Shown here piece by piece: positions 3,392-64,000 of a stretch of 64,000 nucleotides of DNA. The DNA is from a virus (lineage: Duplodnaviria > Caudoviricetes): IMG/VR virus record IMGVR_UViG_3300021400_000095; one strand, written 5' to 3'. The notes beneath the pieces are model-generated. The model was not told where the DNA came from, made no database searches, and was given only the letters and a program-made list of their open reading frames with translations. Made by a program: the position numbers and the translations under genes. Position 1 is the stretch's first letter. Every line of letters begins with the position of its first letter.

Positions 3392-4279
3392 ATGAAAAAA
3401 ATAATATTAGATGAACAAACTAAGAATGAATTAAAGAACATAATTAATGAAGAACTAACTATTAACAATGAGATTAATCTTCTAACAACTTCAATTTATT
3501 CTGAAATAAAAAAGAACATTAAAAATGTAAAATATTCACCATTAAAACAAGATGTTTCTTTTGGTATATTACATTTAAAAAATATAAACATATTTGGATT
3601 AAAATTCAGTATTAAAATTACTATATACAACACAAATAAAAAAGAATCTTATAAGCAAATGTGTGAAGAATATGATTGTTATAATGGATATACTAATTTT
3701 ACAGATAATATTATTAACATAAATATTGGTGTCCTCAGTGGGTCAAGATATATTGATTTTGAAGGTATTCTGCAACATGAAATTGAACATGTTTTCCAAT
3801 ATACCAAAAAGAATAATCAAATAAACACAAAAATAGGCCAAAGCATTTATAAAAAGGCTTTCAACATAATCCAAAACTCTGACAATTATAACAAATATCA
3901 GTTTTATTGTGCATATCTAATTTATTGTTTGTCAGATAATGAGGTAGATGCTTTTGTTAATCAACTTTATAGGGATATTGTAAATGGAAATGCTTTAAAT
4001 GATGAACCTATTATACAAAACTCCACTATAATGCAAAATTATTTGAATTGCAAAAAAATATTAAATAATCTTGATATTAATAATAGATTTTATCAAATGG
4101 CACTTATGTCAATAGGTTTTGATACTGAGAAAAAACAAAAACAATTTATCAAATATTGTAACAATGCTCTTAAAAGAATGATAAACAAAATTGGTAAAAC
4201 TATTGTAAAAGCAAGAAAAGATTTAATTGAAAAAAAAGATGTTGCTGTGCAACTTAATAATTTGAAAATTGAAAATTAA
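3392..4279 (+). CDS. HExxH zincin-like metallopeptidase with leader helix; paralog of 44009-44824
   Basis: GILQHEIEHVFQ..EVDAFVNQLY; N-terminus MKKIILDEQTKNELKNIINEE. Confidence 0.55.
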   Translation: MKKIILDEQTKNELKNIINEELTINNEINLLTTSIYSEIKKNIKNVKYSPLKQDVSFGILHLKNINIFGLKFSIKITIYNTNKKESYKQMCEEYDCYNGYTNFTDNIININIGVLSGSRYIDFEGILQHEIEHVFQYTKKNNQINTKIGQSIYKKAFNIIQNSDNYNKYQFYCAYLIYCLSDNEVDAFVNQLYRDIVNGNALNDEPIIQNSTIMQNYLNCKKILNNLDINNRFYQMALMSIGFDTEKKQKQFIKYCNNALKRMINKIGKTIVKARKDLIEKKDVAVQLNNLKIEN

Positions 4280-4291
4280 TTTATATATTTA
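4261..4291 (+). promoter_or_regulatory. Bacteroidota-type promoter variant for the polB C-half
   Basis: TTTG(4261-64)-N19-TATATTTA(4284-91), one mismatch to TAnnTTTG. Confidence 0.45.
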
Positions 4292-4307
4292 CAAAAAATT
4301 TAATGTG

Positions 4308-4406
4308 ATGAAAATTTTAAATAAAGGTAAATGTTTAGATTATGTATATGATATATCATTAGATGGCACTGTAGTTAATGCATTGGGTATGAATATCTTA
4401 TCAAAT
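4308..4406 (+). other. Split intein C-part (IntC, 33 aa, terminal Ser-Asn, Thr+1)
   Basis: DYVYDISL (block F) and NILSN|TDG (block G with terminal Asn; penultimate Ser instead of His). Confidence 0.87.
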
Positions 4407-5894: not shown

Positions 5895-5928
5895 AAAAAA
5901 GACTAAGTTTAATTACTTAGTCTTTTTT
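5894..5928. terminator. Bidirectional intrinsic terminator
   Basis: A-tract, gactaag..cttagtc stem, T-tract between convergent genes. Confidence 0.75.
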
Positions 5929-6521: not shown

Positions 6522-6522
6522 T

Positions 6523-7807: not shown

Positions 7808-8950
7808 TTATTTTTTATAATCATCTTTTATTTTATCTCTTAATTGTTGTTTTGCATCATCAGACCATTTTGAATAATATGGATTGTTAAATGCTAAATC
7901 CTGTGCATCTTTTGACCTCCACCTATAAAAATCATTATGTTTCCCTTTAAATGGTTTATTTTTATCTCTTTCCTGTTTCTTATCAAATAAATTTTTAAAT
8001 GTGTTTGGTTCATTCATTCTATCTTTATAATAATTAGCATTTTTAACTAATAAAAGAACAAATTTCCCATCACCAAGTTTAACATAATCAATATCATCAC
8101 CAGGAACAAAACCATATTGTTTATTTTGCCTTATATCTTTTCTTACTCTTTCCAAATCACTATAATCAACAACACCAATAACATTTTCATCTGATATGTT
8201 ATGTAAATCAGCATTTGTCATAGGATAATTCTTATGTAGCCAAGGTGTTTGCTTTTCAATACCACCATGCTTTTGTAAAATGTTTAAAAGTTTTTTACTG
8301 TTAATTGACTTTCCTTCCTTAACAATACTTTCATATGTTATAACTTGTTTAGTAGGATTTAAGTCATTCTTACTTCCACCTGATTTTTGATAAACATTTT
8401 GTTCCCCCCTATTAAATTGTGACCTCTTAATGTTAGCATCATTTGCCATTGCATTGTTGTATTGGGTCTCAATTTGTTTTAAATTTGGATTGTTTTTCTC
8501 CATTGTTTTCATTGTGGAAATACCTTGTTGCTTAATTGTTGGGTCATTGCTTTGTGCTTTCTTCTTTGCAGCACCATATCTCCACTTTAATGTTGATGCA
8601 TTTGTATTTGAAACCCTGTTTTTATTATCACCATATGTTCTATTAACTAAGTTCTGATTATCTTCAAATATCTTATTCTCCCAATCAAATTTCTTTGTCT
8701 CAACATATATTGGTGTTTGTACACTAATGTTTCTGTTTAATCCATAAAAACTACTATCCCTTCTCATCTGTTTTGCAAGTTTATCAGTTGTTAATGGCTT
8801 TGCATCACCATTTTCAGTCTTGTCACCAGTGTAAACATAATTTGCCCCATCAAATTCATTGAAATCTGACCCAACATTATCTAAATATGCTGTGTTACAC
8901 CCAACAATCTCATCCAACTGCTTCTGTGTTAAAATAACCCTTTTTGACAT
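7808..8950 (-). CDS. Hypothetical protein with leader helix
   Basis: MSKRVILTQKQLDEI; TATTTAT motif upstream. Confidence 0.6.
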   Translation of the reverse strand: MSKRVILTQKQLDEIVGCNTAYLDNVGSDFNEFDGANYVYTGDKTENGDAKPLTTDKLAKQMRRDSSFYGLNRNISVQTPIYVETKKFDWENKIFEDNQNLVNRTYGDNKNRVSNTNASTLKWRYGAAKKKAQSNDPTIKQQGISTMKTMEKNNPNLKQIETQYNNAMANDANIKRSQFNRGEQNVYQKSGGSKNDLNPTKQVITYESIVKEGKSINSKKLLNILQKHGGIEKQTPWLHKNYPMTNADLHNISDENVIGVVDYSDLERVRKDIRQNKQYGFVPGDDIDYVKLGDGKFVLLLVKNANYYKDRMNEPNTFKNLFDKKQERDKNKPFKGKHNDFYRWRSKDAQDLAFNNPYYSKWSDDAKQQLRDKIKDDYKK

Positions 8951-15124: not shown

Positions 15125-15574
15125 TTAGCCTTCATAACTTAAACCTGGTGCTCCATCTCCATATGTATCAAGCCAAATCTTGTTTATTACCTTTTGTCCT
15201 TCTTTCCATTCATACTCATAATCGTCAATGATTCTTGTTGCTTCTGCATTTAATGCATTACATAATCTTGTTAGAACAATATCCCTGAATGCTTCTTCTT
15301 CTGTAGGCTCACCCCATCTGTCATAAACACTTCCCCCATCTTCAAAATCTGCATTAAAATCATAATCCTCTTTCAGTACTTTCTTCACACTCTCAGCAAC
15401 AATCTGCCTGAGAGTGTTTTCATTTAGTTTTATTATATTCTTTTTCATATTTATATTCTTTATTTCATTAGCATTATTGTTCTTTTGATATTTTTTGGCT
15501 ACCTTGTGATTGATAGTAATTATCTGCTTTTTCAACAGTGGTATTACCTGCTGAATTTCATATCTCATCACCAA
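15125..15574 (-). CDS. Small protein with leader helix (alternative start 15448)
   Basis: MKKNIIKLNENTLRQIVAESVKKVLKE. Confidence 0.55.
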   Translation of the reverse strand: MVMRYEIQQVIPLLKKQIITINHKVAKKYQKNNNANEIKNINMKKNIIKLNENTLRQIVAESVKKVLKEDYDFNADFEDGGSVYDRWGEPTEEEAFRDIVLTRLCNALNAEATRIIDDYEYEWKEGQKVINKIWLDTYGDGAPGLSYEG

Positions 15575-15665: not shown

Positions 15666-16151
15666 TTAGTAGTTCATTTGTCCTTGTTGTGGGTTCATTG
15701 CATTCTGTGGGCTATATTGTCTATTATTGATATAACCTGTTTGTTGTCTTTGGTTAATTCTTTTACCAGCAGCATCCCATTTACTTTGCATGCCTTGTAC
15801 ATCACCCATTTTTGCTTTTATTGCTGCAATTTGTTGGTTAATTTGTTGATTTACTTGATTAACAGCAGCATTTACTCTTTGTTCTCTTGATGCTTCAATG
15901 GCATTAATTTGTTGTTGTAATTTCTCATTATCTGCTTGCATGCCTTGCATTTGTGCTTGGTATGCATTCATTTTTGCATTATCAACAACATTACCTACTG
16001 CATTACCAACACCCTTTGCAACACCTTTGATTCCTCTACCAAGATTTTGGAAAAACCCTTCATCCATATCAGATTCTTTAAGAACCTCAATAACAGATTC
16101 TCTAACAATATTTTTAAGTTCTGATTCAGTCAATCTAATTTTATTAGCCAT
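15666..16151 (-). CDS. Leader-helix protein with amphipathic segment and Gln-rich coiled coil
   Basis: MANKIRLTESELKNIVRESVIEVLKE..DEGFFQNLGRGIKGVAKG. Confidence 0.65.
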   Translation of the reverse strand: MANKIRLTESELKNIVRESVIEVLKESDMDEGFFQNLGRGIKGVAKGVGNAVGNVVDNAKMNAYQAQMQGMQADNEKLQQQINAIEASREQRVNAAVNQVNQQINQQIAAIKAKMGDVQGMQSKWDAAGKRINQRQQTGYINNRQYSPQNAMNPQQGQMNY

Positions 16152-18397: not shown

Positions 18398-19510
18398 ATG
18401 GCAAAATTAACAGAACAAGAAATGCTTCAAGTTGTTGAAGAAAGTATAAAGAAAATTGAAAATAAGGATTTTACTGCATATTTTTTAGTAATTGACACAA
18501 AAGGAAACCCATCAGGTTCTCTTGAATACATTTATCAAACAGCATTCACTTTAAGAGAACTTGGTTATAATGCAGTAATAATTCACAATGATAAAGAATT
18601 TGTTGGTGTTGAGGAATGGCTTGGAAAGAAATATGCTGATTTACCACATAAGAATTTTGAAACAGAAAATGTTGAGATTGGGCCTTCTGACTTTTTATTC
18701 ATTCCTGAAATTTTTGCAAACATTGTTGGTCAATTAAAGAATATTAGTTGTAAAAAAATAATGATAGTTCAAAACTATAATTATTTACCTGAATTCATGC
18801 CAATTTCAAGTACTTTGGATGATATGAAGATTAATGATGTTGTAACAACAACTAATGTTCAGGCAACAAAGGTAAAGGAATATTTTCCAACAGTTCAAAC
18901 ACATGTTGTTGCACCAAGTATTAAAAAGGTTTTTAGAAATAGTGATAAACCAAGAAAGTTAATTATAAATGTTGTTTCCAAGAATCAAGAAGATGTTTAT
19001 AGAATTATGAAACCATTCTATTGGAAATATCCTATTTACAAGTGGATTTCATTCAGGGAACTAAGAGGTCTTGACCAAGAAACTTTAAGTACTGCACTAA
19101 GGGAAACACCTATAACTGTTTGCATTGATGCAGAAACTAATTTTGGATATGTTGAACTTGAAGCACTAAGATGTGGCTCAATAGTATTAGCAAAAATACC
19201 AAGCACACCTAGTGATTGGAATCTTGAAACTGACAAGAATGGTGAGCAACATTTAACTGATGCATGTGTTTGGTTTGATAACATTGACAGTGTTCCTGAT
19301 ATGCTTGCAAGTATTATTAGAACATGGACACTTGATAGAATTCCTTCAGAAGTATATAATAATCTACATAAATTTGATTTAATGTTCACACCTGAGCAGC
19401 AATCAAAAGAAATTGAAAGAGTTTATGGGCATGACATCTTTGAAAAAAGATTAAATGATTTGAAAGAATTCCACATTCAATTAAAGAATAATATAAATGA
19501 GAATAAATAA
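18398..19510 (+). CDS. Glycosyltransferase-like protein (GT-B)
   Basis: PSGSLEYIY, DFLFIPE, ETNFGYVELEALRCGSIV (E-x7-E-like). Confidence 0.65.
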   Translation: MAKLTEQEMLQVVEESIKKIENKDFTAYFLVIDTKGNPSGSLEYIYQTAFTLRELGYNAVIIHNDKEFVGVEEWLGKKYADLPHKNFETENVEIGPSDFLFIPEIFANIVGQLKNISCKKIMIVQNYNYLPEFMPISSTLDDMKINDVVTTTNVQATKVKEYFPTVQTHVVAPSIKKVFRNSDKPRKLIINVVSKNQEDVYRIMKPFYWKYPIYKWISFRELRGLDQETLSTALRETPITVCIDAETNFGYVELEALRCGSIVLAKIPSTPSDWNLETDKNGEQHLTDACVWFDNIDSVPDMLASIIRTWTLDRIPSEVYNNLHKFDLMFTPEQQSKEIERVYGHDIFEKRLNDLKEFHIQLKNNINENK

Positions 19511-28714: not shown

Positions 28715-28744
28715 AAAAAGAGAGTTAATCAACTCTCTTTTTTT
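28714..28744. terminator. Bidirectional intrinsic terminator
   Basis: aaaaaagagagtt-aatc-aactctctttttt. Confidence 0.8.
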
Positions 28745-29445
28745 TATGCCAAATCAGGATATAATCTTATTATCTTGTTTCTAATACTTTTAACCTTGTT
28801 CTCATAATTTTTATCACTTGCATACCTCATTCCAAGGTCATTAACAAATCCACCAGGGCTTAAAAGTTCATCAATTGATTTATCATTTAAATATTTTGCT
28901 TTCATTAAATTAATGTATGGTTGTATGCTATCATCCTGTGTTGGATATGTGCATGCATTTTTTCCACTATCATATGAACCAACAGACCAAACACTATTTG
29001 TTTTTCTTGCTCTATTTGTCATACCAAAACAACTTTCCAAATGTGCTTGTGCTAATAGTAATGGCAAATCAAAATTATTTTTTTGGCAAACATCAACAAT
29101 TTTTTCTGGTGAAAGTTGAAGATTTTCTATTGACATATTCTGATTCTTTAATGCCTGTGCAATGTACTTTGTAACATCTTTAATCTTTTTATCTCTTAAA
29201 GTATCTACTTGCTGTTCCACACCAACCTCATGTTTAATGTAATTTTTATATTTTTCATTAAGCTCCAAGCCATCAATTGCAAATGCAATAACACTTGCAG
29301 CAATACCAGCAGCAAGTGCTGCTTTATATCTTTTTATTAGAGATTTTATATCAAATCCTTCAGTCAGTGTTTCACCTGTTATTTCTTGTAAGATTGAATA
29401 TTCCTTTATGAAATCAAACTGACTTTCATTAACAATGAATTTCAT
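28744..29445 (-). CDS. Glucosaminidase (GH73-like) peptidoglycan hydrolase
   Basis: LLLAQAHLESCFG, NSVWSVG, YASDKNYENKV. Confidence 0.8.
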   Translation of the reverse strand: MKFIVNESQFDFIKEYSILQEITGETLTEGFDIKSLIKRYKAALAAGIAASVIAFAIDGLELNEKYKNYIKHEVGVEQQVDTLRDKKIKDVTKYIAQALKNQNMSIENLQLSPEKIVDVCQKNNFDLPLLLAQAHLESCFGMTNRARKTNSVWSVGSYDSGKNACTYPTQDDSIQPYINLMKAKYLNDKSIDELLSPGGFVNDLGMRYASDKNYENKVKSIRNKIIRLYPDLA

Positions 29446-32561: not shown

Positions 32562-32759
32562 CTACTTTCCTTCTTTCCAACAATCAAAACAACCCTTTCC
32601 TAATAAATGGTCATATACTGATTGATAAAATAAACCATGTTTAGGACAATAAATTGGAATGTTGTTAAATGGTTCTATATTTGTATCTGGTACACTTCTA
32701 TAATCATATGTGTTACCATATATTTCAGTTGCTCTCTCAACAAATTCTTTCTTTGTCAT
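32562..32759 (-). CDS. Stand-alone single zinc-ribbon repeat (endonuclease remnant or DNA-binding mini-protein)
   Basis: EFVERA..YDY..IYCPKHGLFYQ..HLLGKGCFDC; one unit of the repeat in 1642-3366 and 35824-36621, with no nuclease domain. Confidence 0.7.
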   Translation of the reverse strand: MTKKEFVERATEIYGNTYDYRSVPDTNIEPFNNIPIYCPKHGLFYQSVYDHLLGKGCFDCWKEGK

Positions 32760-33910: not shown

Positions 33911-33921
33911 TATAAATAGTT
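33911..33921 (-). promoter_or_regulatory. Putative late promoter AACTATTTATA
   Basis: 18 nt upstream of the neck gene start. Confidence 0.6.
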
Positions 33922-40442: not shown

Positions 40443-42347
40443 TTATCTAAGTTCATTGATATCCCATGTTGTAAGGCCATCTACTCTCACGCCACCATAA
40501 AATCTGTTGTTAACACACTTCTTGGCATATCTTGTGATAATGCCCTTTACAGGAGCAAAGTTGTGAGGGTTGTAGATAACTGGAGTAAGTTGCATAGGGA
40601 TATAAGGAGCATAGATATAGCCAGTATCAAGAAGGCTCTTACCCTTGTGACCAATGATGATTGACCAAGCAGGGGAATAAGGGTCTCTATAGACCTGATA
40701 TCTACCACCAAGTGAACCTACTCTTTCAATACCCATATTGTATTGGTCTGATTCAGCAGAAGCATCAGAGACATGGAAGTATTCAAGGTTATCAAATACA
40801 GCAGAGATTTCAGAAGAAACTACAAGGAAGTTTGCACCACCTCTAAGAGTTGCTTTATGGATTTGAGCAGAGATTTGGTTAACCTTAGTTACAAGTTCTT
40901 GGTTCCAGTCTTTTTGGGTGTAGTTAGTGCTGAAGCCAGCCATTCTTCTCCAACCATTGACATCCCATCTTGCTTGCCATGGAGCAAATTTTCTAAGGTC
41001 TCTAAGAATCTCTCTATCAATTTCAGCAGCAATTTGTTCTGAAAGGAGAGCAGTTAATTCAGCCTCAGCATCAATATTATGGAAAGCACTTACATCTTGT
41101 GCAAGTTCAGGTGACCATGTTGCTCTAAGTTTTCTTTCTTCAACTGAAACAGTAACACTATCAAGTTTGAAAGAAACCTCACCAATTTCAGTTTCAAGTT
41201 CAAGGCTATCATACTGACACCATGCTACTTGGAAGAGGTCATCAATAGAGTCAGGCATTTCAACACCAAGATAGCCATCCATAGAAGCACCTTGTACTTT
41301 TGCAGGTTTTGCAAGGTCAATATCAAGGTAGATGCAACCTTCAGCATCACATACACCTGCATATTCTACAATACCCTTACCATATTTTTGGGTAACAACT
41401 CTGAAAGGAATTGATTCATTAGCAGCAAAGCAAGTTGAGCCTGAGCCACCAATAGCTTCCTTAGCAACTACTTTAAGAGAACCAAGGAAAGCTTCAGTAT
41501 CCATTTCATTTCCATCAGGGCCTGTAAGTTTGCTTGCATTGTAAGATGAGAAGCCTTTAACTTTAAGGATAAGGTTTCTAAGAGTACCATCACTATAGAG
41601 TTTAAGGTCATCCTTAGTTGCATCAACTAATTGGCCTCTCTTGAAGACAACAGGAGTAGCTTCACCAACTTTGATATGAATCTTACCCTTTGAGTTATCA
41701 AAAAGGAAATCATTATAGAAGAGGTCATAAAGGGTTTTGCCCATATACTTAGTAACTTCAGGAGAAACCTGTCTTACTCTTTGACCATCTTCAAGTGAAG
41801 CAAAAGCCTCATCATATGAAGTGAAACCTGAAGAAACAACCTCACCAGATTTTACATCATAAACTTCAAAGATTTGTTCATTAACAACCTCATCAGGGAG
41901 ATAGAATCTGTTATAAGTAGAACCATCTCTTCTGTCAGTTCTCTCATAACCCATAAGACCTCTATGTCTGCCAGTAGTACCATCTTCAATTTCTTCAGAT
42001 GACCACTCTCTTTCACTGGTAACAGGGAGTAAGTAGAAGAGTTTACCAATAGGAAGGTTCATAGCCTGTACTGATACAATATCATTAGCAAGGAGTTTGC
42101 TGAATACTCTTCTGATAATAGGGAATACAACAGTTTCAAATGAACCACTGTTGCTTGCATCTGATGCTTCTTTAAGCATTGCCTTAGCTTGGTTTTCATA
42201 AAGGGTTGCTACATTTTCCTTTACAATACCAACAAGACCATCAGTCATACCAAGAGAATCCCATCTCTTAGCAATTTCAGTTCTAATTCTTTTCTGTTCA
42301 TTAAGTTCAATAGTACCTACTTGACCAGATTTTAAAAATTCAACCAT
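40443..42347 (-). CDS. Major capsid protein (T4 gp23-like)
   Basis: PIIRRVF..DIVSVQAMNLPIG, RKLRATWSPELAQD..AEAELTALLSEQIAAEIDREIL, GYIYAPYIP, TRYA. Confidence 0.95.
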   Translation of the reverse strand: MVEFLKSGQVGTIELNEQKRIRTEIAKRWDSLGMTDGLVGIVKENVATLYENQAKAMLKEASDASNSGSFETVVFPIIRRVFSKLLANDIVSVQAMNLPIGKLFYLLPVTSEREWSSEEIEDGTTGRHRGLMGYERTDRRDGSTYNRFYLPDEVVNEQIFEVYDVKSGEVVSSGFTSYDEAFASLEDGQRVRQVSPEVTKYMGKTLYDLFYNDFLFDNSKGKIHIKVGEATPVVFKRGQLVDATKDDLKLYSDGTLRNLILKVKGFSSYNASKLTGPDGNEMDTEAFLGSLKVVAKEAIGGSGSTCFAANESIPFRVVTQKYGKGIVEYAGVCDAEGCIYLDIDLAKPAKVQGASMDGYLGVEMPDSIDDLFQVAWCQYDSLELETEIGEVSFKLDSVTVSVEERKLRATWSPELAQDVSAFHNIDAEAELTALLSEQIAAEIDREILRDLRKFAPWQARWDVNGWRRMAGFSTNYTQKDWNQELVTKVNQISAQIHKATLRGGANFLVVSSEISAVFDNLEYFHVSDASAESDQYNMGIERVGSLGGRYQVYRDPYSPAWSIIIGHKGKSLLDTGYIYAPYIPMQLTPVIYNPHNFAPVKGIITRYAKKCVNNRFYGGVRVDGLTTWDINELR

Positions 42348-44008: not shown

Positions 44009-44824
44009 TTAATTTTTCTCTCTAAATCCCTGTTTTTTGTATTTATCTTGTTTAACTTTTACAATAACTTTTCCAATTTTTTTAATAAAATTATCACATA
44101 GTTTCATAACTTTTTCAGGGGTCATTTTATATTTTTTTAATTCTTTAATGAAATCCTGTTCATCACAAAATTCATTATATATTGAACACATTTTTTCATA
44201 TAATATCCAGCATTCACTTTTTTTAATGATTTCCATTGATGGCATTTCAGGTTTTGCCATTAAATAAGCATATAATCCATTAACATAGGAATCTTGTTCT
44301 GATTTTATACAACCATACATTAATTGTGCAGTTTTACTGACAATAACATTTCTTGATTCCATATTTGTTTTAATAAAAGAATATATGTTACTATCAGAAT
44401 ATTTCTTTCCCATCATCTTCTGCTCAAATAAGTGTGATAATTCATGTTGAATTGTATCAATAACATTAGATTTTACAATTTGACCAGAAATCATTGGAAT
44501 TGTTAACCCCATAAAAAATAATTTATCTGAAACATAAACAGACCAACCTGTGGAAACAACACCTGAATATTCATAATATTCTTTTGTAAAAAAATTATAA
44601 CAAGTAATTGAACAACTTACTTTACCACCAAATAAATCAAATGTTAAAGAGTTATTCCATTTTGAATAAAAATCACTTGTTTCAACATCAGTCTTTATCT
44701 TTATTTCTTCCTCTATTTTTTTATAAACAGACATGGATAAATCAGCAACCATTTCTGAAACACCAAGTTCTTCATTTAAAAGTTGCTTAAATTGATTTTC
44801 TGTTATGGTTAATTTCTTCTGCAT
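44009..44824 (-). CDS. HExxH zincin-like metallopeptidase with leader helix; paralog of 3392-4279
   Basis: Start at 44824 is coupled to the upstream stop; MQKKLTITENQFKQLLNEE; TIQHELSHLFE..EQDSYVNGLY. Confidence 0.55.
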   Translation of the reverse strand: MQKKLTITENQFKQLLNEELGVSEMVADLSMSVYKKIEEEIKIKTDVETSDFYSKWNNSLTFDLFGGKVSCSITCYNFFTKEYYEYSGVVSTGWSVYVSDKLFFMGLTIPMISGQIVKSNVIDTIQHELSHLFEQKMMGKKYSDSNIYSFIKTNMESRNVIVSKTAQLMYGCIKSEQDSYVNGLYAYLMAKPEMPSMEIIKKSECWILYEKMCSIYNEFCDEQDFIKELKKYKMTPEKVMKLCDNFIKKIGKVIVKVKQDKYKKQGFREKN

Positions 44825-45282
44825 TATTTCCCAAAAATTGCTCTTGTGTCTATGCCTGTATTTTCCATGATTTCTTCCCAATATTCAATAGCAAAAGCAA
44901 TAAGTTCATCTTTTGTACCAATAATACAATGTCCACCCATTGAATTATCACAACCTGTAGGAGTATTTAAACCTCTTCTATAGAGTACACATTCACCACC
45001 AAGGTCAAAAACAAGGTCACCAGGTTTTGGATTTTTATCATTATCAGCATAAAAGTTAGTGAATTCTGTACTATAGAATTGCCATTCACCATTTACAAAG
45101 ATAGAATTATCTTCAAGATTAATATCTTCATCTTTTAAGACACAATCTGGTTTAATGAGATTAAATGGTTTATCCCATTCATTATCATAAACAATAAAAA
45201 TTTCATTAATAATGTTTTCTTTCAAGAATTTTTTAACAGATTCTAGAACAATATTTTTTAATTGTTTTTCAGTAATTAACAT
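44824..45282 (-). CDS. Hypothetical protein with leader helix
   Basis: MLITEKQLKNIVLESVKKFLKENIINE. Confidence 0.6.
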   Translation of the reverse strand: MLITEKQLKNIVLESVKKFLKENIINEIFIVYDNEWDKPFNLIKPDCVLKDEDINLEDNSIFVNGEWQFYSTEFTNFYADNDKNPKPGDLVFDLGGECVLYRRGLNTPTGCDNSMGGHCIIGTKDELIAFAIEYWEEIMENTGIDTRAIFGK

Positions 45283-46742: not shown

Positions 46743-47921
46743 TTATAATTCATCTGGATGAATATATTCATCATTAATAATATTTTTATCAGTTTGCAAT
46801 GTTGACATTTTATCAACAAATGAATAATATTCTTTTTCTTCTTTTGCTTTTTTTGTTAATCTATGTAATATTTCTTTACCTTTTTTTGATTTAATAAAAA
46901 TTTCTGACATTATTTTACTAAACTTATCAACAGGTAACTTTGCAATTTTCCTATATAAATAAGGGATAAGGTCTGTATCAACATTTTCAAAACAATCTGT
47001 TAAAATTTCCCATAATTGTGGGCCAATTCTCATATCCCAAGGTTCTGCTTTCAAATAATCTGCTTTATTAAGAATATAATCAATTTGATTCTTATCTTTT
47101 GGTAAACCATGTGAAGCAAACAATTCCATAAAACCTCTTATTGTTTCACTAAGAAGAACTGGAAATATTTTACCACTTGCTTCAATAACAACTTTTTCAT
47201 CAGGTTGACCAAGTTTTACTGCAACAGAACCAAACAATAATTTGTTATTATCATCAATTCCAAGGTCTTCTTTTACAAATAATAAATATTCATTTAAGAA
47301 GATAATTTTTCTATACAAATCACACAATGTTGGGTCAACATCATATATGTCTGATATGTATGATTTAATATTTGAAGATATTTTCATAGCAGCCCCCATA
47401 TTAAGAACATCAAGAATTCTTCTTTTTTCAACTTCTTTTTTAAGTGTTTCTGCTTCTTCAATATCTGAAAATTCAACATCAATAGTATCTGGTTCAATTT
47501 TTATATTATCACCATCAATCTCTTCAACCAAATCTAATTGAAGTGTAATTGTATCATCAGGAACTTTAAAAAGGTTTGTAACATAGTTAAAACAAATCTT
47601 TTCAAGTTCTGCTTTATGCAACTGTTCAATTTTTTGACATTTGATTACTAATTTTGAAAGAACACTTTCAATTTTATCATCATTAAAATCATTAATTGAA
47701 CCTATTTTCTTTAATTCATTTTTAACTTCAAGAAAATGTTTTTTTGTCAAATGTTCAATGAAATTTTCATCAAATATATTTGGTATTGCTGCATTGTTTT
47801 TTAATGATGTTTGACCTTTGAAAATACAATTAACAATGTCATCAGGCAAAGAATCCAATAAGATACTTTCCTTTAATTGCTTATACATATTTTCATTTAT
47901 AAATACTGTTTTCATTATCAT
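46743..47921 (-). CDS. Hypothetical head-module protein
   Basis: 392 aa; MKTVFINENMYKQLKES; EPWDMRIGP. Confidence 0.6.
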   Translation of the reverse strand: MIMKTVFINENMYKQLKESILLDSLPDDIVNCIFKGQTSLKNNAAIPNIFDENFIEHLTKKHFLEVKNELKKIGSINDFNDDKIESVLSKLVIKCQKIEQLHKAELEKICFNYVTNLFKVPDDTITLQLDLVEEIDGDNIKIEPDTIDVEFSDIEEAETLKKEVEKRRILDVLNMGAAMKISSNIKSYISDIYDVDPTLCDLYRKIIFLNEYLLFVKEDLGIDDNNKLLFGSVAVKLGQPDEKVVIEASGKIFPVLLSETIRGFMELFASHGLPKDKNQIDYILNKADYLKAEPWDMRIGPQLWEILTDCFENVDTDLIPYLYRKIAKLPVDKFSKIMSEIFIKSKKGKEILHRLTKKAKEEKEYYSFVDKMSTLQTDKNIINDEYIHPDEL

Positions 47922-48005: not shown

Positions 48006-49016
48006 TTAAATATTATTTAATATATTAACAAATTTTTCCTGTTGTTCAGGTGTTGCTTTATTATACATGTCAATGATTGCTTCTTTCATATCCCAACTAT
48101 TTGATAATCTTTGGACCTCATCATCACCAAAAACATCACTAAATGCTTGAAGTACTTCAAAAACATTTAATCCACCAATAAGTTCAGCAATATTAACTGA
48201 TTCATCATTACCAAGTAATTCTTCAGTCAATTGTTTTTTTGTCATGGTTTTGCCATTTCTTTTCATTTCATAAAGTCTAGCAATTTCAACATTTCTTTTT
48301 GTAAAACTTTTGCTTTCAGACACACCATTAGTTATATCTTCACTATTTCCATTAATTGAAATTTTATTAGGGTCTGCACCATTTGAAACTGCATTTTGAA
48401 ATGCTGTTGTAACAGAATCTTTAATATTTGGCTTGCTTGAATCAAATGAAATGTTTACTTCATCTTTATCAGTTGCATTATTTGTTGTGGTTTTTCCTTG
48501 CATTGATATGGAATTATTATTTAAACCTGCTCTAAGTGCATCACTATATTTTTCTTGTGCATTTTGACCTAATTCATTTGCATTTGAGCCAGTAAAAGTA
48601 ACAACAGTTTTTTTGTTATCCATTATCTCATTCAATTGTTTTGGTGAAATAATAATTCTTTTTTCTTGAACATCCCTTTTCTTGTCTGGATATAAACTTA
48701 TTGTCATATCATATTTATCAAATTCATCTTGGACAGTACCAGCAGCATGGCATCTAATATATCCATATAAATTTCCAAAATCTGTTGTGACCATTGTTTC
48801 ATAATCTCTATATGCACCTGCATTTGTATCAACCTTATTAATATAATTATGATATACACCTGCACCAACAATTACATCATTAACACCATCAACTGATTTA
48901 ATCATACTGATAAGTTTTCCAACATTTTGCCATGCATCATCATGATGTAATTGCCCACAAAAATTAGAAACAAATCTATAAATTCTATTTTGAATTTTTT
49001 TTATTTCATTTGCCAT
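48006..49016 (-). CDS. Hypothetical multi-segment protein
   Basis: Segments separated by VQE/LNE/VSE/LTE; internal RIIISPKQLNE. Confidence 0.6.
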   Translation of the reverse strand: MANEIKKIQNRIYRFVSNFCGQLHHDDAWQNVGKLISMIKSVDGVNDVIVGAGVYHNYINKVDTNAGAYRDYETMVTTDFGNLYGYIRCHAAGTVQDEFDKYDMTISLYPDKKRDVQEKRIIISPKQLNEIMDNKKTVVTFTGSNANELGQNAQEKYSDALRAGLNNNSISMQGKTTTNNATDKDEVNISFDSSKPNIKDSVTTAFQNAVSNGADPNKISINGNSEDITNGVSESKSFTKRNVEIARLYEMKRNGKTMTKKQLTEELLGNDESVNIAELIGGLNVFEVLQAFSDVFGDDEVQRLSNSWDMKEAIIDMYNKATPEQQEKFVNILNNI

Positions 49017-49589: not shown

Positions 49590-51227
49590 TTAGTCCACTT
49601 TTTTTTTATTGTCAAGAGGTGCACCATGCTTTAACTGATACATCACATCCTTAGTAACAGCATCTACCAAGTCATTAAATGGGGAACTATCACCAATTTG
49701 CTTACCAAATGGTTCTTCACTGTGTGCACTCTCATCATTCCAATCCTCACCATGTTCATTTTTATCTTCACCAGTTGGAGGTAAATCCATAGGTTTCTTT
49801 CTATAACCAGGATGGTCACCAAATACATGTAATTCATCTTCATTTAAGAAAGATTTAACAACTGACTCAACAATGTTATTAAGAACATTCTTCTTTGATT
49901 CAAACATACTGTCATCATCAAAATCATCTTCATCATCAAGTTCATCTTCAACCTCAGCATCAGCAGAAACATCATCACCTTCTACAGCATCATCATCAAC
50001 TGCTGGCTCATCTTCAACTGCTGGTTCTTCATCATCAACTGCTGGTTCATCTTCAACAGCTGGCTCTTCATCAGCATTTATTTGTGCTTTAAGTGCAGCA
50101 AGTTGTGCTTCAAGGTCAGCAATTTTTGCTGCAATATCATCATCAGCAGCAACTTCATCATCAACAGCTGGTTCATCTTCAACTGCTGGTTCTTCATCAG
50201 CAAGTTCATCATCAAGAATTTCATCATCTGCTAATTCATCATCAAGTTCATCTTCCTCATCATCTTCAATATCATAGTCATCATCTGAGAATTCATCAAA
50301 ATCATCCTCATCTTCAGCCTCATCATCTTCCATTAAATGACCATCAGGTGAACCAATACCTGCATCAGAATCAGCTGGAAGACCTTCTGAACCCCATTCT
50401 TTTTCATCTTCTTCATTTACTGATTTATCACCTTCCATATCCCAACCAATTGATTTAGGGTCTTCACCTTTATCAAGACCTTCTGAACCCCAATCACATT
50501 TTCCATCTTCACACTCTTCATTAACTCTAACAACCTTGCCACCAGATGGATGTTCAGCAGCAACTGCTTTACCATCAGATGCAATATCACTATCCTTTAC
50601 ATCCTTACCCTTTTCAGGTGCAGAACCATCACCAAAAGGTTCACTTTGGTTTTCAGGTTTTTCACTATTGAACTTAGGGTCTTTATCAAGAGATGCTTTT
50701 GCTACATTAACAAATGGTTTGTCTTCATCATTTGAACCCTTAGGTGCTTCAGGCACACCTGTATTATTAAATCCAATGGATTCATTCATTAACATAGATG
50801 CATTGTACATGATTTGTCTTTGTCTTGCAATCTCATTTTTCATTGCATCAGTACTTTCAATAACTAAATCTTCCTTTTTGAAAGGGTCAAGTGTTGAAAT
50901 ATTTATTTTACCATCATGTGCTTCATTAATAGAAGCAAGTTTAAGTTCAAGATTTTTAAGTGCATTTGCATAACTGTCATATTGATAGTTTTTCTTATTC
51001 ATAAAACCACCAATATATTCATATGATTCTGCAATATTTTGTTTACCATCAACTGATTGTTTAATATAATAATGGTTACATTCTTTTACAATACCATAAA
51101 ATTTACCATCAGCTGCCTTTTTGGTAAACTCCAATGTATAATTACTTTGCTTGTTACTGTCCTCATTAATAGTTCCATAAGTATAAAGAGCTTTCATTCT
51201 GGCAACAGCATCATTAAAATTACTCAT
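49590..51227 (-). CDS. Highly acidic prohead core/internal protein
   Basis: EEPAVEDEPAVDD repeats, WGSEGL twice, many (I/V/L/M)NE sites; late motif upstream. Confidence 0.65.
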   Translation of the reverse strand: MSNFNDAVARMKALYTYGTINEDSNKQSNYTLEFTKKAADGKFYGIVKECNHYYIKQSVDGKQNIAESYEYIGGFMNKKNYQYDSYANALKNLELKLASINEAHDGKINISTLDPFKKEDLVIESTDAMKNEIARQRQIMYNASMLMNESIGFNNTGVPEAPKGSNDEDKPFVNVAKASLDKDPKFNSEKPENQSEPFGDGSAPEKGKDVKDSDIASDGKAVAAEHPSGGKVVRVNEECEDGKCDWGSEGLDKGEDPKSIGWDMEGDKSVNEEDEKEWGSEGLPADSDAGIGSPDGHLMEDDEAEDEDDFDEFSDDDYDIEDDEEDELDDELADDEILDDELADEEPAVEDEPAVDDEVAADDDIAAKIADLEAQLAALKAQINADEEPAVEDEPAVDDEEPAVEDEPAVDDDAVEGDDVSADAEVEDELDDEDDFDDDSMFESKKNVLNNIVESVVKSFLNEDELHVFGDHPGYRKKPMDLPPTGEDKNEHGEDWNDESAHSEEPFGKQIGDSSPFNDLVDAVTKDVMYQLKHGAPLDNKKKVD

Positions 51228-54200: not shown

Positions 54201-54787
54201 TCAGTTATATTAAATAAATCAAGTGGATGTCTCACATTAAGAAATCCAGATAAAATAGTACCTTTTCTTGAATAATCAGGTCTAACAGTAAATGAACTAT
54301 TTCCAAAATGTACTGGGACTGAAAATCTTCTTGCCCATTCAATGTCTTGTGTTGTACAAAAAATACCTTGCTCACCAAAATTCATTGAGTGACCAATATA
54401 TTTTTTATCAAAACTATCACCAAAAAATTTAGGACTTCCATGATGTACAACAATAGGAAAACCATTTTTATCAACAATCTTGCTTGAATTTTGTGGGTCA
54501 TTCTGCCAATCACCAAACCAGCCCTTAAAAACATCTGTATATATTATATTATTAATATCAAACATGCTTTCTTGTTCATCATGTTCTTCATTAACATGAT
54601 AGTATGGACTCATTTCATTTTTTTCAGGTGCAAGTTTATACTTGTCATCCTCAACATTTTCACACATCCCACCAACAACAGCATCCATAACACCTGCATT
54701 GACTTTACCACCAACTTGGTCTTGTGCTGCTATTGCTTTCTTTATATGTTTTTTTTGTTTTTCTGTAATGTATATTGTCTTGTTCAT
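51296..54787 (-). CDS. Polyvalent protein: ART-PolyVal-like domain, unknown domains, zinc ribbon, second ART-like domain, Pol-beta-type nucleotidyltransferase
   Basis: FKGWFGDW..SKIVDKNGFPIVVHHGS..GIFCT; CDKC..CKDC; LYHAS..SILQNGI..VFLS; MTGSLANFNW..SDIDLHI..VELYVQD. Confidence 0.7.
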   Translation of the reverse strand: MNKTIYITEKQKKHIKKAIAAQDQVGGKVNAGVMDAVVGGMCENVEDDKYKLAPEKNEMSPYYHVNEEHDEQESMFDINNIIYTDVFKGWFGDWQNDPQNSSKIVDKNGFPIVVHHGSPKFFGDSFDKKYIGHSMNFGEQGIFCTTQDIEWARRFSVPVHFGNSSFTVRPDYSRKGTILSGFLNVRHPLDLFNITEQDLNNMFEMHIKYDEFGKHYLKEYGRDEYYKKFIAETKKLLQVPNHQLVKFHIHTNFGNALKEFGYDGFIASMDGMGGPKGGIEYCFLEPNQFKSIKSLAFNPSSDSIYENKNKMKNIINESPDSIWSLKLNFRDSEAVSFMYYLKTNKFYVADSQTTHIKMMEELGLSEEELKEIDEDNFFKYVDLERTGRYWPSANVISFWKTPVYNKSKMMDAITSFSVKSNIDIKYLLIDYWDGPVDMLIPFRWFTNGTFDMLKEKGVFQIYPNDSSEYIDNKKYTTFTVFFPNGEKYELDIAGNFVEKKYQYTYAFNEGKRNKKIIKNDKGEIVPETCDKCGGKVVVQIHGEPVYVCKDCGKYFGTMPFTLDESKLNESFTDCEEFYEDHTEFDLLSEFMHDKENNIKQKKWNLIPAEQYHTLLKRYMNDPTMARIPYSVVHNWFTNIIIPNALDIYYITNLAGHSSYFPSDIVSDYFDADNIVDYETGSKYLDSIGFYDWCKFPDGTDAWSDYGLNPLFQNIHEYTPNMSAEDLLILINRCLDVAHQRGDLSSAFIQGGKKSCDYISNSISESKWSGEGEEWKLRPVKNVPKILYHASLKKNRNSILQNGILASIGDEYKDWWNYDGPNGEIPDDEKLPEMVFLSYQPYTWSDTYYLDSMDIYKVDTTKLDRTQFYLDPDRHLRYKGCYCYTGNVPASAIELIDTRYRNKSVSENIEKEIVSPDEVDLSSFNIKKKLNPKFWQDGHLDSRIRMKLLDIADDFIDFLDVDWVKPKDVIMTGSLANFNWNGEYSDIDLHILMDFSDVDENVNLVKNYFLSKKSLWNDEHKDIKIFGFPVELYVQDINEEHDSSGVYSLDRDVWLVEPDRDVLATSKVNKQFIKNKVSEYVNQIDKLIYLYKKNKNDEYKLEKISKKANKLWDEIKNSRKKGFEISGGKEVNNFNIIFKSLRRGKYLDKLYKLKTKTYDILSSL

Positions 54788-54825
54788 ATACTAAAAATCT
54801 ACATAATAAATAGTTGAAAGAAAAG

Positions 54826-60520: not shown

Positions 60521-60541
60521 AATAAATGAAACATTTAAGAA

Positions 60542-63439
60542 TTAACTTGCATCTACTCTTGTCCAATTGGTTGGAATACCAGATGTACCTGTTGTCCAAC
60601 TAGTTAAAGAAGGAGTAACAAATGTACCAGAATTTGTTTGAACACCAATTACCCAACCACTTGTACAATTAGATGCTGAAATATCAGTTGCTAAACATTT
60701 AATAGAATTTAACTTACTACAACTCCAAAACATATATTGATAACAACTATTTGCTAAAGTAGTAGCAGGTAGTTCTGGTGCTGTGGTTAAATTAGTACAA
60801 CCTTGGAACATACCAAAGTAACAACTATTTGCTAAAGTAGTAGCAGGTAATTCTGGTGCTTGTGTTAAACTTTTACAATTATAAAACATACTAGTACAAG
60901 CAGAAGCTGGCATCATTGTAGTTGCAGATGTGCCAATACTACTTGGGCCATTTACTAAACTAGTACAACCATAAAACATATAATAATAACAACCTTGTGC
61001 TAAAGTGGTTGCTGGTAATGCAGGTGCTGTTGTTAAACTAGTACAGCCACTAAACATATAAGTACAAGCAGATGTAGTCATTGTAGTTGCAGATGTGCCA
61101 ATACTACTTGGGCCATTTACTAAACTAGTACAACCTTGGAACATTTCTGAATAACAACATTGTGCTAATGTTGTAACTGATAATGCAGGTGCTGTAGTTA
61201 ATCCTGTACAATTTCTAAACATACCATAATAACAATAATTTGCTAATGTAGTAGCAGGTAATGCAGGTGCTGTTGTTAAACTAGTATTACCAAACATAAA
61301 TGTATAACAATAATTTGCTAATGTGGTAGCTGGTAATCCTGGTGTATTTATTAAACTAGTACAATAATAAAACATCCTTTCATAACAACCTTGTGTTAAT
61401 GCTGTTGCTGGTAATAATAAATTACTTGCATCTGTTAAACCAGTACAATAACTAAATAGTGATATAAATGTATATGCACTTTCTAATGTTGTTAATTTAG
61501 CAAAATCTGTACTATTAATTAAACTCATAATATTGCCCTTAACACTAAATTGTGCTGTACTTCCACCAAAATAATTATAACCATTATATTCTCTTAAATC
61601 ATCATATCCATAACTTTTATTATTACCTCTAAATTGAATAATATCACCACTTACAACAGAAATACTAGTGCCACCTGTAGAACTTGTTATACTTGTCCAA
61701 CTATTATTATTTAATTTATATTCTATTGTTTTATAAAAATTATGATTATCTCTACCACCTTTTTTCCATATAATATTGCCATCACTTTGTACTTCAAATG
61801 TCAATGGTGCTGCTAAATAATCATCTTCAACTGTCCAACCTGCTGGAATACCACTATCACCTGTTGTCCAATTAACACCTGCTGTTTTAACAAATGTACC
61901 AGTACTTGCCACATAACCTACCCAAGAAAATTTACAATTAGTTGCTGACATATCAGTTGCTAAACATTTAATATAATTTAAACTATTACAATAATAAAAC
62001 ATATTTCTATAGCATTCTCTAACTAATGTAGTAGCTGGCAACACAGGAGCAGTTGTTAAACTAGTACATCCATAAAACATAGAAGAATAACAACCTTCTG
62101 CTAATATTGTTGCTGGTAATTCTGGTGCTTGTGTCAAACTAGTACAATTGTAAAACATACTATTATAACAATAAATTGCTAAAGTAGTAGCTGGTAATTC
62201 TGGTGCTGTTGTTAAACTTGTACAACTATAAAACATATTATCATAACATTGTTTTGTTAATGCTGTTGCAGGTAATACAGTTGGTGCTCCTGTTAAACTG
62301 GTACAATTTCTAAACATACTATAATAACAATAAGTTGCTAAAGTAGTGGCTGGTAATTCTGGTGCAGTTGTTAAACTTGTACAACTTTGGAACATATGTC
62401 CATAACAACTATCTGCTAATGTTATTGCTGGTAATTCTGGTGCTGTTGTTAAACTTCTACAACTATCAAACATATCATAATAACACTCTTGTGCTAATGT
62501 GGTTGATGGTAATTCTGGAGCTGTGGTTAAACTACTACAACCATAAAACATTTGATAATAACATCTTGTTGTCAATGTGGTTGATGGTAATTCTGGAGCT
62601 GTGGTTAAACTACTACAACCATAAAACATTTGATAGTAACAACTTGTTGCTAAAGTAGTTGTTGGTAAATAATTAGCAGGAACACCTGTTAAACTAGTAC
62701 AACCACCAAACATACCATCATAACAGTTACTTGCTAATGTAGTTGCTGATAATTCAGGTGCTGTTGTTAAATTAGTACAACCCCAAAACATGCTTTGATA
62801 ACAACTTTCTGTTAATATAGTAGCAGGTAACTCAGGTACACTTCTTAAACTTGTACAATAACTAAACATATCCCAATAACAACCCATTGCTAATGTAGTT
62901 GCAGGTAATATTAATTCACTTGCATCTGTTAAGCCTGTACAGTGATAAAATAATCCTTGAAAATTATAACTACCTGATAAAGTTTTTAGTTTTACAAAAT
63001 CAGTACTATCAATTAAACTCATCACATTACCTTTAACACTAAATTGTGCTGTACTTCCACTAAATGAACTATATACATAATTACTATTATTACCTCTAAA
63101 TTGAACTGTGTCACCACTTTCTACAGAAATGCTTGGTGCAGTATCTCCTGTTGCATTTGTAATACTTGTCCATGTTTCACCATTGTCCTTACTATATTCA
63201 ATGGTTCTAACTGCATTATATGATGAGTCTTTTACCCATCTGATATTACCATTACTTTGAATTTCAAATGTCAATGGTGTTCCAAGAAGTCTATCTCTTT
63301 CTTTTTCTTCTTCAGTTTTATTATATCTTATGGTTGTTTTGTCATAATTTATACAAGAAACAAATGGTTCTTGATAACCATTTTCCATATATTCTTTATA
63401 ATCTTCTATTGTTTTAAAATGATGTATTGTTTCACCCAT
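60542..63439 (-). CDS. BspA-like LRR protein with two tandem capped modules (12 and 9 repeats)
   Basis: Two copies of PLTFE..QFRGNN..KGN.MSLI cap, then repeats, then IKCLATD..GTFV..WTTG.SGIP..WT cap. Confidence 0.82.
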   Translation of the reverse strand: MGETIHHFKTIEDYKEYMENGYQEPFVSCINYDKTTIRYNKTEEEKERDRLLGTPLTFEIQSNGNIRWVKDSSYNAVRTIEYSKDNGETWTSITNATGDTAPSISVESGDTVQFRGNNSNYVYSSFSGSTAQFSVKGNVMSLIDSTDFVKLKTLSGSYNFQGLFYHCTGLTDASELILPATTLAMGCYWDMFSYCTSLRSVPELPATILTESCYQSMFWGCTNLTTAPELSATTLASNCYDGMFGGCTSLTGVPANYLPTTTLATSCYYQMFYGCSSLTTAPELPSTTLTTRCYYQMFYGCSSLTTAPELPSTTLAQECYYDMFDSCRSLTTAPELPAITLADSCYGHMFQSCTSLTTAPELPATTLATYCYYSMFRNCTSLTGAPTVLPATALTKQCYDNMFYSCTSLTTAPELPATTLAIYCYNSMFYNCTSLTQAPELPATILAEGCYSSMFYGCTSLTTAPVLPATTLVRECYRNMFYYCNSLNYIKCLATDMSATNCKFSWVGYVASTGTFVKTAGVNWTTGDSGIPAGWTVEDDYLAAPLTFEVQSDGNIIWKKGGRDNHNFYKTIEYKLNNNSWTSITSSTGGTSISVVSGDIIQFRGNNKSYGYDDLREYNGYNYFGGSTAQFSVKGNIMSLINSTDFAKLTTLESAYTFISLFSYCTGLTDASNLLLPATALTQGCYERMFYYCTSLINTPGLPATTLANYCYTFMFGNTSLTTAPALPATTLANYCYYGMFRNCTGLTTAPALSVTTLAQCCYSEMFQGCTSLVNGPSSIGTSATTMTTSACTYMFSGCTSLTTAPALPATTLAQGCYYYMFYGCTSLVNGPSSIGTSATTMMPASACTSMFYNCKSLTQAPELPATTLANSCYFGMFQGCTNLTTAPELPATTLANSCYQYMFWSCSKLNSIKCLATDISASNCTSGWVIGVQTNSGTFVTPSLTSWTTGTSGIPTNWTRVDAS

Positions 63440-63614
63440 AAAAATATTTTATTTTTTAACATTATTTACTAAAGATAAATATTAAACAAATGTTAAAAAA
63501 AGCAATATAACTTTCGGATAATCAATATATTAGATACATTTTATATTTTAAATTATTGATTTTGTTTTTGTTTACAATTCAACTATTTATTATTATAATG
63601 ATATTGTATATAAC

Positions 63615-64000
63615 ATGAAAAAAGTAATTATAACAGAGGAACAAGAAAAAAAGTTAATTGGTTTATTAACAGAGGAACAGATTCAAAAAATGCCTGTTCC
63701 TGGCAAGGCAAACAAGCCATATTGTATTAATCCTGACAAGGTTTTAATTGTCAAAAAATTTTTGGACAACACATTTCCAAAAAAGGGAAAAATTGAAAGA
63801 ATTGGTGCAAATGGTTTAATTGAATTAATTCCAATTGCTAGTATTATGTCATCAACAGGTGAGCCTCTTAAAAATTTTTATAAGGAAGACATTCATGATA
63901 TGCTTGTTGAAAAATTCAAGAAAATGTTTCTTGACCACACAGAAAGGGATTTGTTTTTGAAACAAGTTGTTGAAGATTGGTTCAATAATAAGATAAGTGT
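63615..64000 (+). CDS. Hypothetical protein with leader helix (3' truncated; not in ORF track)
   Basis: ATG at 63615, MKKVIITEEQEKKLIGLLTEE, open to the window end; AACTATTTAT at 63581. Confidence 0.7.
   Translation, partial: MKKVIITEEQEKKLIGLLTEEQIQKMPVPGKANKPYCINPDKVLIVKKFLDNTFPKKGKIERIGANGLIELIPIASIMSSTGEPLKNFYKEDIHDMLVEKFKKMFLDHTERDLFLKQVVEDWFNNKIS

Follow-up and report, generated by a model that had tools for sequence, protein, structure and literature searches.

The head module of IMG/VR virus record IMGVR_UViG_3300021400_000095 (Duplodnaviria; Caudoviricetes) raises the question of why a set of proteins with mostly unrelated bodies begins with the same short peptide. The window analyzed here is a 64-kb stretch of this record (64,000 nucleotides, 29% GC), with a T4-type head module encoded on its minus strand. 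A previous inspection of the letters alone, hereafter the sequence-only reading, listed ten such N-termini and proposed that they form an address tag that loads diverse effectors into the prohead, is clipped off by the prohead protease and lets the cargo be injected with the DNA. We find this interpretation to be partly supported. The peptide, called the tag below, is with a probability of roughly 60% a portable capsid-targeting and processing propeptide of the same kind as the capsid-targeting sequence (CTS) of phage T4, only longer and in wider use.

A recurrent N-terminal peptide on mostly unrelated proteins

The ten listed N-termini, named here by the start positions of their genes (3392, 8950, 15448, 16151, 29445, 44824, 45282, 47921, 54787, and 63615), all read as quoted at the coordinates given. 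For scoring, an eleventh seed, 18398, was added to the ten and later withdrawn. In a leave-one-out analysis with a position-specific scoring matrix of 17 columns, eight of the 11 seeds scored above all 18,926 null positions, and each of the remaining three was reached by a single position, so the recurrent pattern claimed by the sequence-only reading lies beyond chance. When all six frames were scanned with the full matrix, the top ten places were taken by ten of the 11 seeds, every one right after Met. The eleventh, 45282, in which the first column is a gap, was found via its second half only, with a score of 12.9, a value also reached by chance in a non-coding frame. Compared with the N-termini of 50 untagged genes, with the Met/Lys columns dropped, eight of the 11 seeds stood above every untagged one, and 63615, 3392, and 29445 were marginal. 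The shared residues are encoded by differing codons, which points to selection on the protein and not on the DNA or mRNA.

Once the first 32 residues were removed, similarity was left only between 3392 and 44824, both of which are HExxH proteins (28% identity over ~250 residues, E 1.5e-8), and every other pair had E > 0.1. The bodies are thus unrelated as proposed, except for this paralogous pair. A short N-terminal peptide common to unrelated mature parts, which is a feature of the T4 CTS, is accordingly found both in the window and, as described below, on 55 body clusters elsewhere.

For two genes the choice of start codon bears on where the tag lies. In 44824 translation starts at an internal ATG, which forms TAATG with the stop codon of the gene upstream, an arrangement that supports this start. 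For the 15448 gene, translation may instead begin at 15568, which follows a TATTTAT motif by 27 nt; the tag would then be internal, at about residue 41. Three relatives (P0023, P0029, and P0075) have 100–185 residues ahead of the motif.

Conservation of the tag stops at a glutamate

Outside the window, 117 instances give the consensus MKKTIKLNESQLRKIVAESVKKVLKE. The tag is built of two parts and contains as many as three sites of the (L/I/V)-x-E type: L-(T/N)-E↓S, V-x-E↓S, and V-L-K-E↓x (h below denotes a hydrophobic residue, and arrows mark presumed cuts). The full tag of ~26 residues is present in three of the ten window proteins (15448, 16151, and 45282); the pattern held to be common to the ten is common only in the sense that all carry the first half or a variant of it. 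In our reading of the sequence, a short hydrophobic h-x-h stretch may lead into a Thr/Asn helix N-cap followed by an amphipathic helix of ~18 residues. An AlphaFold model of 44824–45282, made without an alignment, is of low confidence (mean pLDDT, the predicted local distance difference test, 44), and its best-scored part is the tag helix at residues 5–23 (pLDDT ~67).

Across the 117 instances, the information content is 1.4–3.5 bits per column from h-x-h through V-L-K-E and 1.1–1.6 bits in the preceding Met/Lys columns. Past the final Glu it drops to 0.96 at P1′ (weakly Gly, Asp, or Ser) and to 0.2–0.6 beyond. The conservation boundary falls exactly at the last Glu, V-L-(K/N)-E, and the tag thus appears to end, like a CTS, in a predicted cut motif. 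The proposed leader helix ending in (L/I)xE is borne out in that conservation stops at h-h-x-E, but the most conserved element of the tag, h-(T/N)-E, is itself a cut-site motif. Residues 4–34 hold on average 2.5 (L/I/V)-x-E sites in tagged proteins and 0.7 in untagged ones (P = 4e-6), a comparison with some circularity, since these sites are part of the motif itself.

The form of this boundary recurs in the major capsid protein, which is of the gp23 type (40443–42347, minus strand; Pfam Gp23, 240 bits). Its N-arm aligns to mature T4 gp23, and a conserved h-h-x-E↓A site lies between its ENQ motif and this N-arm. The maturation site predicted for the window protein is MLKE↓A, residues 57–60 (42168..42179, minus strand). 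The site reads AMLKE↓AS in the window, YLINE↓AA in ~60 relatives, LISE↓A in Microcystis phage Mel-JY01, LLKE↓A in LR756508.1, and IVSE↓A in Flavobacterium phage immuto. The ENQ motif is presumably common to T4 gp23, which we take to be cut at LTE↓A. Since the tag end and the capsid site are both h-h-x-E, the end of the tag takes the form of the presumed maturation site of the phage. In relatives, the N-terminal helical region of the scaffold ends in LLKE↓S ahead of an acidic stretch. The word h-(L/V/I)-K-E occurs 23 times in the window proteome, against 8.8 ± 2.9 times in shuffled proteins, and two of the occurrences are in the capsid-protein propeptide.

A prohead protease and its gene neighborhood

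The presumed cutter is encoded at 45305–46036 on the minus strand. Its assignment as a prohead protease in the sequence-only reading is confirmed by matches to Pfam Peptidase_S77 (89.4 bits, cut-off 27), PHROG 207 'head maturation protease' (1e-39), and PDB 5JBL (1.3e-16), which make it a core serine protease of the T4 gp21 type (S77). It has ELNHP and SSRGLGS at the positions where the crystallized T4 chain has ELNAP and ASRGLGS; we take these to be the positions of the catalytic His and Ser, mutated in the T4 crystal chain. The T4-type head features found in the window are this protease, the gp23-like capsid protein, and a gp20-like portal (30391–32505, minus strand; Pfam Portal_T4, 266 bits). 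The head module also includes the large terminase (33939–35837, minus strand) and an acidic protein, probably the scaffold or core protein, that was assigned by position and composition only (42395–43894, minus strand) and has a helical N-terminus rich in h-x-E sites followed by an acidic region. Two tagged genes lie between the protease and the scaffold genes, and further ones are located just upstream. A weak resemblance to the tag (8.5 bits) is also seen at an internal stretch, KPMKINKDNYEKFVGECVSKVLRE, of the conserved protein encoded at 46030–46722, immediately upstream of the protease; this protein could be a core protein or partner.

Distribution of the tag

A profile of the window leaders was searched against 1.84 billion cluster representatives at E ≤ 0.001 and matched 80 proteins, with the motif within the first 8 residues in 65 of them. 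Ten that were looked up are unnamed or 'hypothetical' metagenome proteins. With the tags masked, the 80 matches fall into 55 body clusters, few of which are recognized by Pfam (ART-PolyVal, NTP_transf_2, PG_binding, GNAT, and GDSL lipase). Pfam, PHROGs, and the protein atlas gave no family for the tag or for most of the cargo bodies. The nearest Pfam model, PF25734 RelB_like_antitoxin, gave at best 19.4 bits against a cut-off of 27, with only positions 2–24 of its 43 aligned; 16151 scored 13.8 bits.

Relatives of the phage retain the tags. In a syntenic 363-kb relative, G005, whose capsid protein and protease are 91% and 65% identical to those of the window, the orthologs of 29445, 44824, 47921, 54787, and 63615 are all tagged. 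An ortholog of 45282 is missing beside the G005 protease, and another small tagged gene is found nearby, which suggests that the tagged set turns over, like the internal-protein genes of T4 (PMC9026906). Two complete relatives (355 and 363 kb) have 18–19 profile matches each, about half of them within 40 kb of the protease gene (P = 0.004 and 0.008).

A degenerate DNA pattern for ESVKKVLKE was used on viral contigs and prokaryote genomes. It matched 30 viral contigs. S77 is encoded by four of the five largest of these, including both complete genomes, and gp23 by 10 of 21 smaller records, mostly 3–30% complete. In 596 Gb of prokaryote genomes the pattern occurred 73 times, with the first half of the tag upstream in only five cases; these are on four contigs of metagenome-assembled genomes (MAGs) and are probably binned phage. 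Two canonical tags (L165 and L181) were seen on CACYXI010000001.1 (286,648 bp, rumen MAG RUG12352, 'Bacteroidales'), which probably derives from a giant phage and was placed in the bin of its host.

A megablast search with 20 kb of window sequence matched no GenBank phage at the DNA level, and the nearest capsid proteins, at ~40% identity, are those of an uncultured 484-kb phage, Microcystis phage Mel-JY01, and Flavobacterium phage immuto. The tag profile gave no match in immuto and only weak ones in LR756508.1 and Mel-JY01. A Shine-Dalgarno sequence is missing from most window genes, the dUTPase operon and the Clp gene follow TAnnTTTG promoters, and the MAGs that hold tag-bearing contigs belong to Bacteroidales and Prevotellaceae; all three observations fit assignment to phages of Bacteroidota.

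Tagged proteins of the window

The three proteins with the full tag are all encoded on the minus strand. The tag of the small protein 15125–15448 (15368..15448; KLNE / VAE-S / VLKE) has all 26 residues and scores 63.6 bits, 47.1 in its second half. That of the 161-aa (amino acid) Gln-rich protein 15666–16151 (16074..16151; RLTE-S / VRE-S / VLKE-S; 49.4 bits) has TATTTAT 26 nt upstream of the gene. The third belongs to a 152-aa protein directly downstream of the protease (44824–45282, tag 45217..45282; ITE / VLE-S / FLKE; 37.6 bits, score 33.5).

Two others lie on the plus strand. The 295-aa HExxH protein 3392–4279 has the first half plus INE and NEE sites (3392..3454). The protein from 63615, which runs off the window, starts with KVIITEEQEKKLIGLLTEE (63615..63677), and its G005 ortholog with MRRIIITEAQEQQLIRLLKE. 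The remaining ones are again on the minus strand. In the 380-aa protein 7808–8950 the tag is MSKRVILTQKQLDEIV (8903..8950), with TATTTAT 26 nt upstream; a relative, P0014, has the same residues from the start through position 56. The 233-aa protein 28744–29445 (Pfam Glucosaminidase, 5.8e-9) has the first half and then IKE and LQE (29383..29445); the leader profile matches the first residues of its G005 ortholog, which is 63.5% identical. The second HExxH protein (271 aa, 44009–44824) is encoded between the protease and the scaffold and carries KLTITENQFKQLLNEE (44768..44824), with MAKQIIITEEQFNKLLNEE in G005, and the 392-aa protein 46743–47921 carries TVFINENMYKQLKE-S (47868..47921), with MKTIFITESMYGILKE in G005. 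The largest tagged protein, of 1163 aa (51296–54787), is a polyvalent protein with domain matches to ART-PolyVal and a nucleotidyltransferase behind the leader TIYITEKQKK (54737..54787). Eleven database matches of 46–1156 aa start with this same leader, and nine of them also share body sequence.

By domain or motif match the cargo is as diverse as had been suggested: a giant protein with ART-PolyVal and nucleotidyltransferase domains, a glucosaminidase, two HExxH proteins, and several unknowns. The metabolic genes for dUTPase, IMPDH/GMPR, and the Clp ATPase have no tag, again in accord with the sequence-only reading.

Internal and C-terminal copies

Two further proteins encoded on the minus strand have internal copies. 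The 545-aa acidic head-module protein 49590–51227 contains a copy of the second half at residues 441–465 (49833..49907), MFE-SKKNVLNNIVE-SVVKSFLNE-DE; its score of 15.5 is the fourth, behind those of the three full tags, and the next non-tag position scores 4.9. The 336-aa protein 48006–49016 has a degenerate internal tag, RIIISPKQLNEIM, at residues 120–136 (48609..48659), which is N-terminal in the G005 ortholog. Relative to that ortholog (272358–273044), the window protein has an extra N-terminal domain of 119 residues, and the fusion or fission point is exactly at the tag-like motif.

Among the 80 database matches, 50 have two or more tag copies, either N-terminal plus internal or one at each end, and internal copies are usually preceded by (N/Y)-E-S-(K/R), another possible cut site. 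A family of 185–404 aa proteins in related phages (L090, L104, L107, L108, L112, and L114) has the second half of the tag as its tail: the C-terminus is ...(V/I)(V/I)KE(S/T)VKKVLKE..NKK(K)-stop, reading VIKESVKKVLKEYINKKK in a conserved protein of 340–400 aa, and a peptidoglycan-binding-like FPF.LGC..IGDLN motif is seen by eye. The tag is therefore N-terminal in the window set, as had been stated, but not an N-terminal element in general, being internal in two other window proteins and internal or C-terminal in relatives. A precedent for copies away from the N-terminus is provided by T4, where both ends of the ADP-ribosyltransferase Alt and the C-terminus of gp21 are cleaved (PMC9026906, PMC10052503).

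Promoters and other genes of the window

TATTTAT is directly upstream of five of the ten listed genes; four others follow it at a distance, within operons or after a long leader, and 3392 has only a variant, TATGTTTAT. Many tagged genes thus sit behind the motif, as noticed earlier, but it discriminates poorly. With 18398 included, the late motif is directly upstream of five of 11 tagged genes and 14 of 50 untagged ones; the association with the motif is real, but it does not separate tagged from untagged genes in this mostly late window. A longer form, AACTATTTAT, presumed to be the strong form of the late promoter, is found at ten window sites (for example, 54806–54815, 63581–63590, and 33912–33921), each upstream of a gene on the same strand, at about 15–35 nt from it at nine sites and 76 nt at PhoH. 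Weaker forms, (A/G)ATATTTAT, are upstream of other late genes.

Homing-endonuclease-like genes with DUF4379/DUF723 zinc-finger modules are present at 1642–3366, 32562–32759, and 35824–36621 of the window and, in G005, at 259596–260951 and 261653–262624 (L116 and L117), one on each side of the protease gene. Their positions in the head module differ between the window and this relative.

The protein encoded at 18398–19510 was considered as an eleventh tagged protein and rejected. Its N-terminal helix, MAELTKxEMLRIVEEN, is family-specific, has no h-(T/N)-E core, and is probably not a tag. The family has 1342 homologs at E ≤ 1e-5; the 120 listed are 53–99% identical and lie on contigs of up to 384 kb. 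The protein, of ~370 aa, looks glycosyltransferase-like by eye (no Pfam family) and appears to be a core gene of the giant-phage clade.

A probable capsid-targeting propeptide and the alternatives

A motif beyond chance that is maintained at the protein level on unrelated bodies, a conservation boundary at Glu, the match of this boundary to the capsid-protein site, the S77 protease, and the genomic association with it together lead us to favor a capsid-targeting and processing propeptide. Under this model, the helix would dock a tagged protein onto the assembling prohead core. After closure of the shell, the protease 45305–46036 would cut the tag to pieces and free inside the head the ADP-ribosyltransferase/nucleotidyltransferase giant protein, the glucosaminidase, the two HExxH proteins, and several unknowns, which would be retained there and then leave the head along with the DNA. 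Internal and C-terminal copies may both dock the protein and mark cut points between the modules of multi-module proteins.

Several observations weigh against this model. The tag is also internal and C-terminal, unlike a classical CTS, and by eye it has no sequence similarity to the T4 CTS (MKTYQEFIAE) beyond the closing h-x-E. In seven of the ten window proteins the tag is limited to the first half, h-x-h-(T/N)-E-x-Q-h, after which each continues with its own h-x-E sites; 54787 has a single h-x-E site, and 8950 has Gln at the position of the core Glu. The look-alike helix of 18398 indicates that amphipathic N-terminal helices can mimic the second half of the tag. A tblastn search with the full tag against 50,697 GenBank phage records gave no match at E ≤ 10. 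One contig of 72,928 bp (L092, IMGVR_UViG_3300021387_000535; CheckV completeness 92%) has one canonical N-terminal tag and no S77 or gp23 match, which means that the completeness value is in error or that tag use extends beyond T4-type phages. Finally, the idea that the tag mimics a helix of the scaffold was rejected: the window scaffold contains LKALLSEAVKDAIRN, which is similar by eye, yet its second-half matrix score is −3.8, and hhalign of the tag profile with 13 scaffold N-termini gave a probability of 0.2%.

We considered four other explanations. The tag might be solely a module that S77 recognizes and cuts, activating pro-proteins or separating modules, with the proteins entering the capsid by other means or being cut without packaging. 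The density of h-x-E sites in the tag speaks for this, as do the two or more copies in 50 of the 80 matches (body-tag-body or a tag at each end) and the possible extra cut site (N/Y)-E-S-(K/R) before internal copies. However, a conserved amphipathic helix of 26 residues far exceeds the two or three residues that such proteases need, and the T4 protease acts within a prohead that has already closed, which by definition makes head proteins of its substrates (PMC9026906); we regard pure processing as unlikely. Use at the N-terminus, internally, and at the C-terminus is typical of interaction motifs, and the helix may instead dock elsewhere among the late structures and partners (a tail or baseplate hub, for instance, or an assembly chaperone) or self-associate, with no connection to the head interior and with the Glu residues as ordinary parts of an amphipathic helix. 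Similar helices are indeed ordinary protein parts in the 18398 family, and the sub-threshold likeness to Pfam PF25734 (at most 19.4 bits against 27) concerns the strand-helix start of that model. Against such docking, conservation stops exactly at h-h-x-E and matches the capsid-protein site, the tagged genes cluster around the protease and scaffold genes, the tag co-occurs with S77/gp23 phages, and the cargo types match known injected proteins. On balance, we think that a partner outside the prohead is improbable.

Terminal peptides are the usual recognition signals of Clp machines, and the window encodes an 838-aa double-AAA Clp-type ATPase (57581–60097), so a degradation or unfolding tag that times or remodels late proteins through this ClpB/ClpC-like AAA+ enzyme was also weighed. 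Presence in one genome is the only link between the two, the Clp gene has a host-type and not a late promoter, and the match to the protease site is left unexplained; we give this explanation very little credence. Least credible of all is an artefact of composition. The residues K, I, N, E, and L are common at 29% GC, the proteome is rich in all five, look-alike N-termini could arise by chance, and the strictest test leaves three of the ten tags marginal. Yet the leave-one-out scores exceed those of about 19,000 null positions, an unbiased search across 1.84 billion proteins recovers this motif at N-termini, and tags are conserved in orthologs; for the core set, these results already refute it.

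If the tag is indeed a capsid-targeting propeptide, sequence alone would reveal proteins that are carried in the head, and probably injected, by a large group of giant phages from gut and rumen that have not been cultured, the 26-residue peptide being a ready-made handle for injected effectors in metagenomes. It would provide a direct catalog of candidate host-takeover and counter-defense proteins, mostly of unknown function, and would extend the principle of the T4 tag to a much larger scale and another form, with multiple sites and with copies at either end and between modules. More speculatively, the tag could be a position-independent, self-removing cargo-loading cassette, with one docking helix and three Glu sites for shredding. 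Copies between modules would then make polyproteins that deliver several effectors, and an uncultured clade of 0.2–0.4 Mb gut and rumen Bacteroidota phages might inject 15–20 or more proteins per infection. We hold this broader proposal only tentatively.

Comparison with known capsid-targeting and processing systems

In T4, the 10-residue CTS of internal protein IPIII is enough to bring about packaging and is cut off by gp21 (PMC9026906, PMC10052503). The window system resembles it in having a short N-terminal peptide on otherwise unrelated proteins that ends in (L/I)-x-E, alongside a gp21-type protease and a gp23-type capsid protein, in including an ADP-ribosyltransferase among the cargo, and in a set of tagged genes that varies between relatives. 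It differs in length (~26 residues against 10), in its two parts with up to three cut sites, and in the frequent internal and C-terminal copies. There are at least 10 tagged genes in the 64-kb window and 18–19 matches per related genome, against a handful in T4 (IPI–III and Alt), and the function here is inferred from sequence. Apart from homology of the tag itself to the T4 CTS, the system has those features of a CTS that can be tested by sequence and may be viewed as analogous to it.

Propeptides of the giant phages phiKZ, 201phi2-1, and SPN3US (PMC10052503, PMC5694885, PMC9026906) are comparable in that a T4-type protease processes many head proteins after Glu and a targeting role has been suggested. 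Multiple cut sites are known in propeptides of phiKZ and SPN3US, and the SPN3US protease gp245 prefers Ser at P1′ (PMC9026906, PMC10052503), as in the tag sites followed by Ser. Unlike the tag, which is one short, conserved, and transferable sequence, these propeptides are mostly 111–254 residues long, share no common sequence, and have the cut motif (S/A/G)-x-E. Encapsulin cargo-loading peptides and the C-terminal helices of P22-type scaffolding proteins are short helices, at either protein end, that dock to the inside of an HK97-fold shell; they are not removed by a protease and have no sequence relation to the tag.

Phage polyvalent proteins have been predicted to be packaged or to accompany the DNA (Iyer et al. 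2017, PMC5512222). The 1163-aa protein, with ART-PolyVal and a nucleotidyltransferase, is of this type, and HExxH (zincin) proteins are typical companions; in the parts of that study considered here, self-cleavage by zincin domains is proposed, and neither a shared N-terminal tag nor processing by a prohead protease is mentioned. The protease receives no more than a brief mention in a paper on related gut 'Jug' phages. A literature search returned the T4 and giant-phage precedents and no description of this tag. The T4 tag and giant-phage propeptides are already well known, and the concept is therefore not new. Newly seen here are the two-part tag with up to three (L/I/V)-x-E sites and its internal and C-terminal occurrence.

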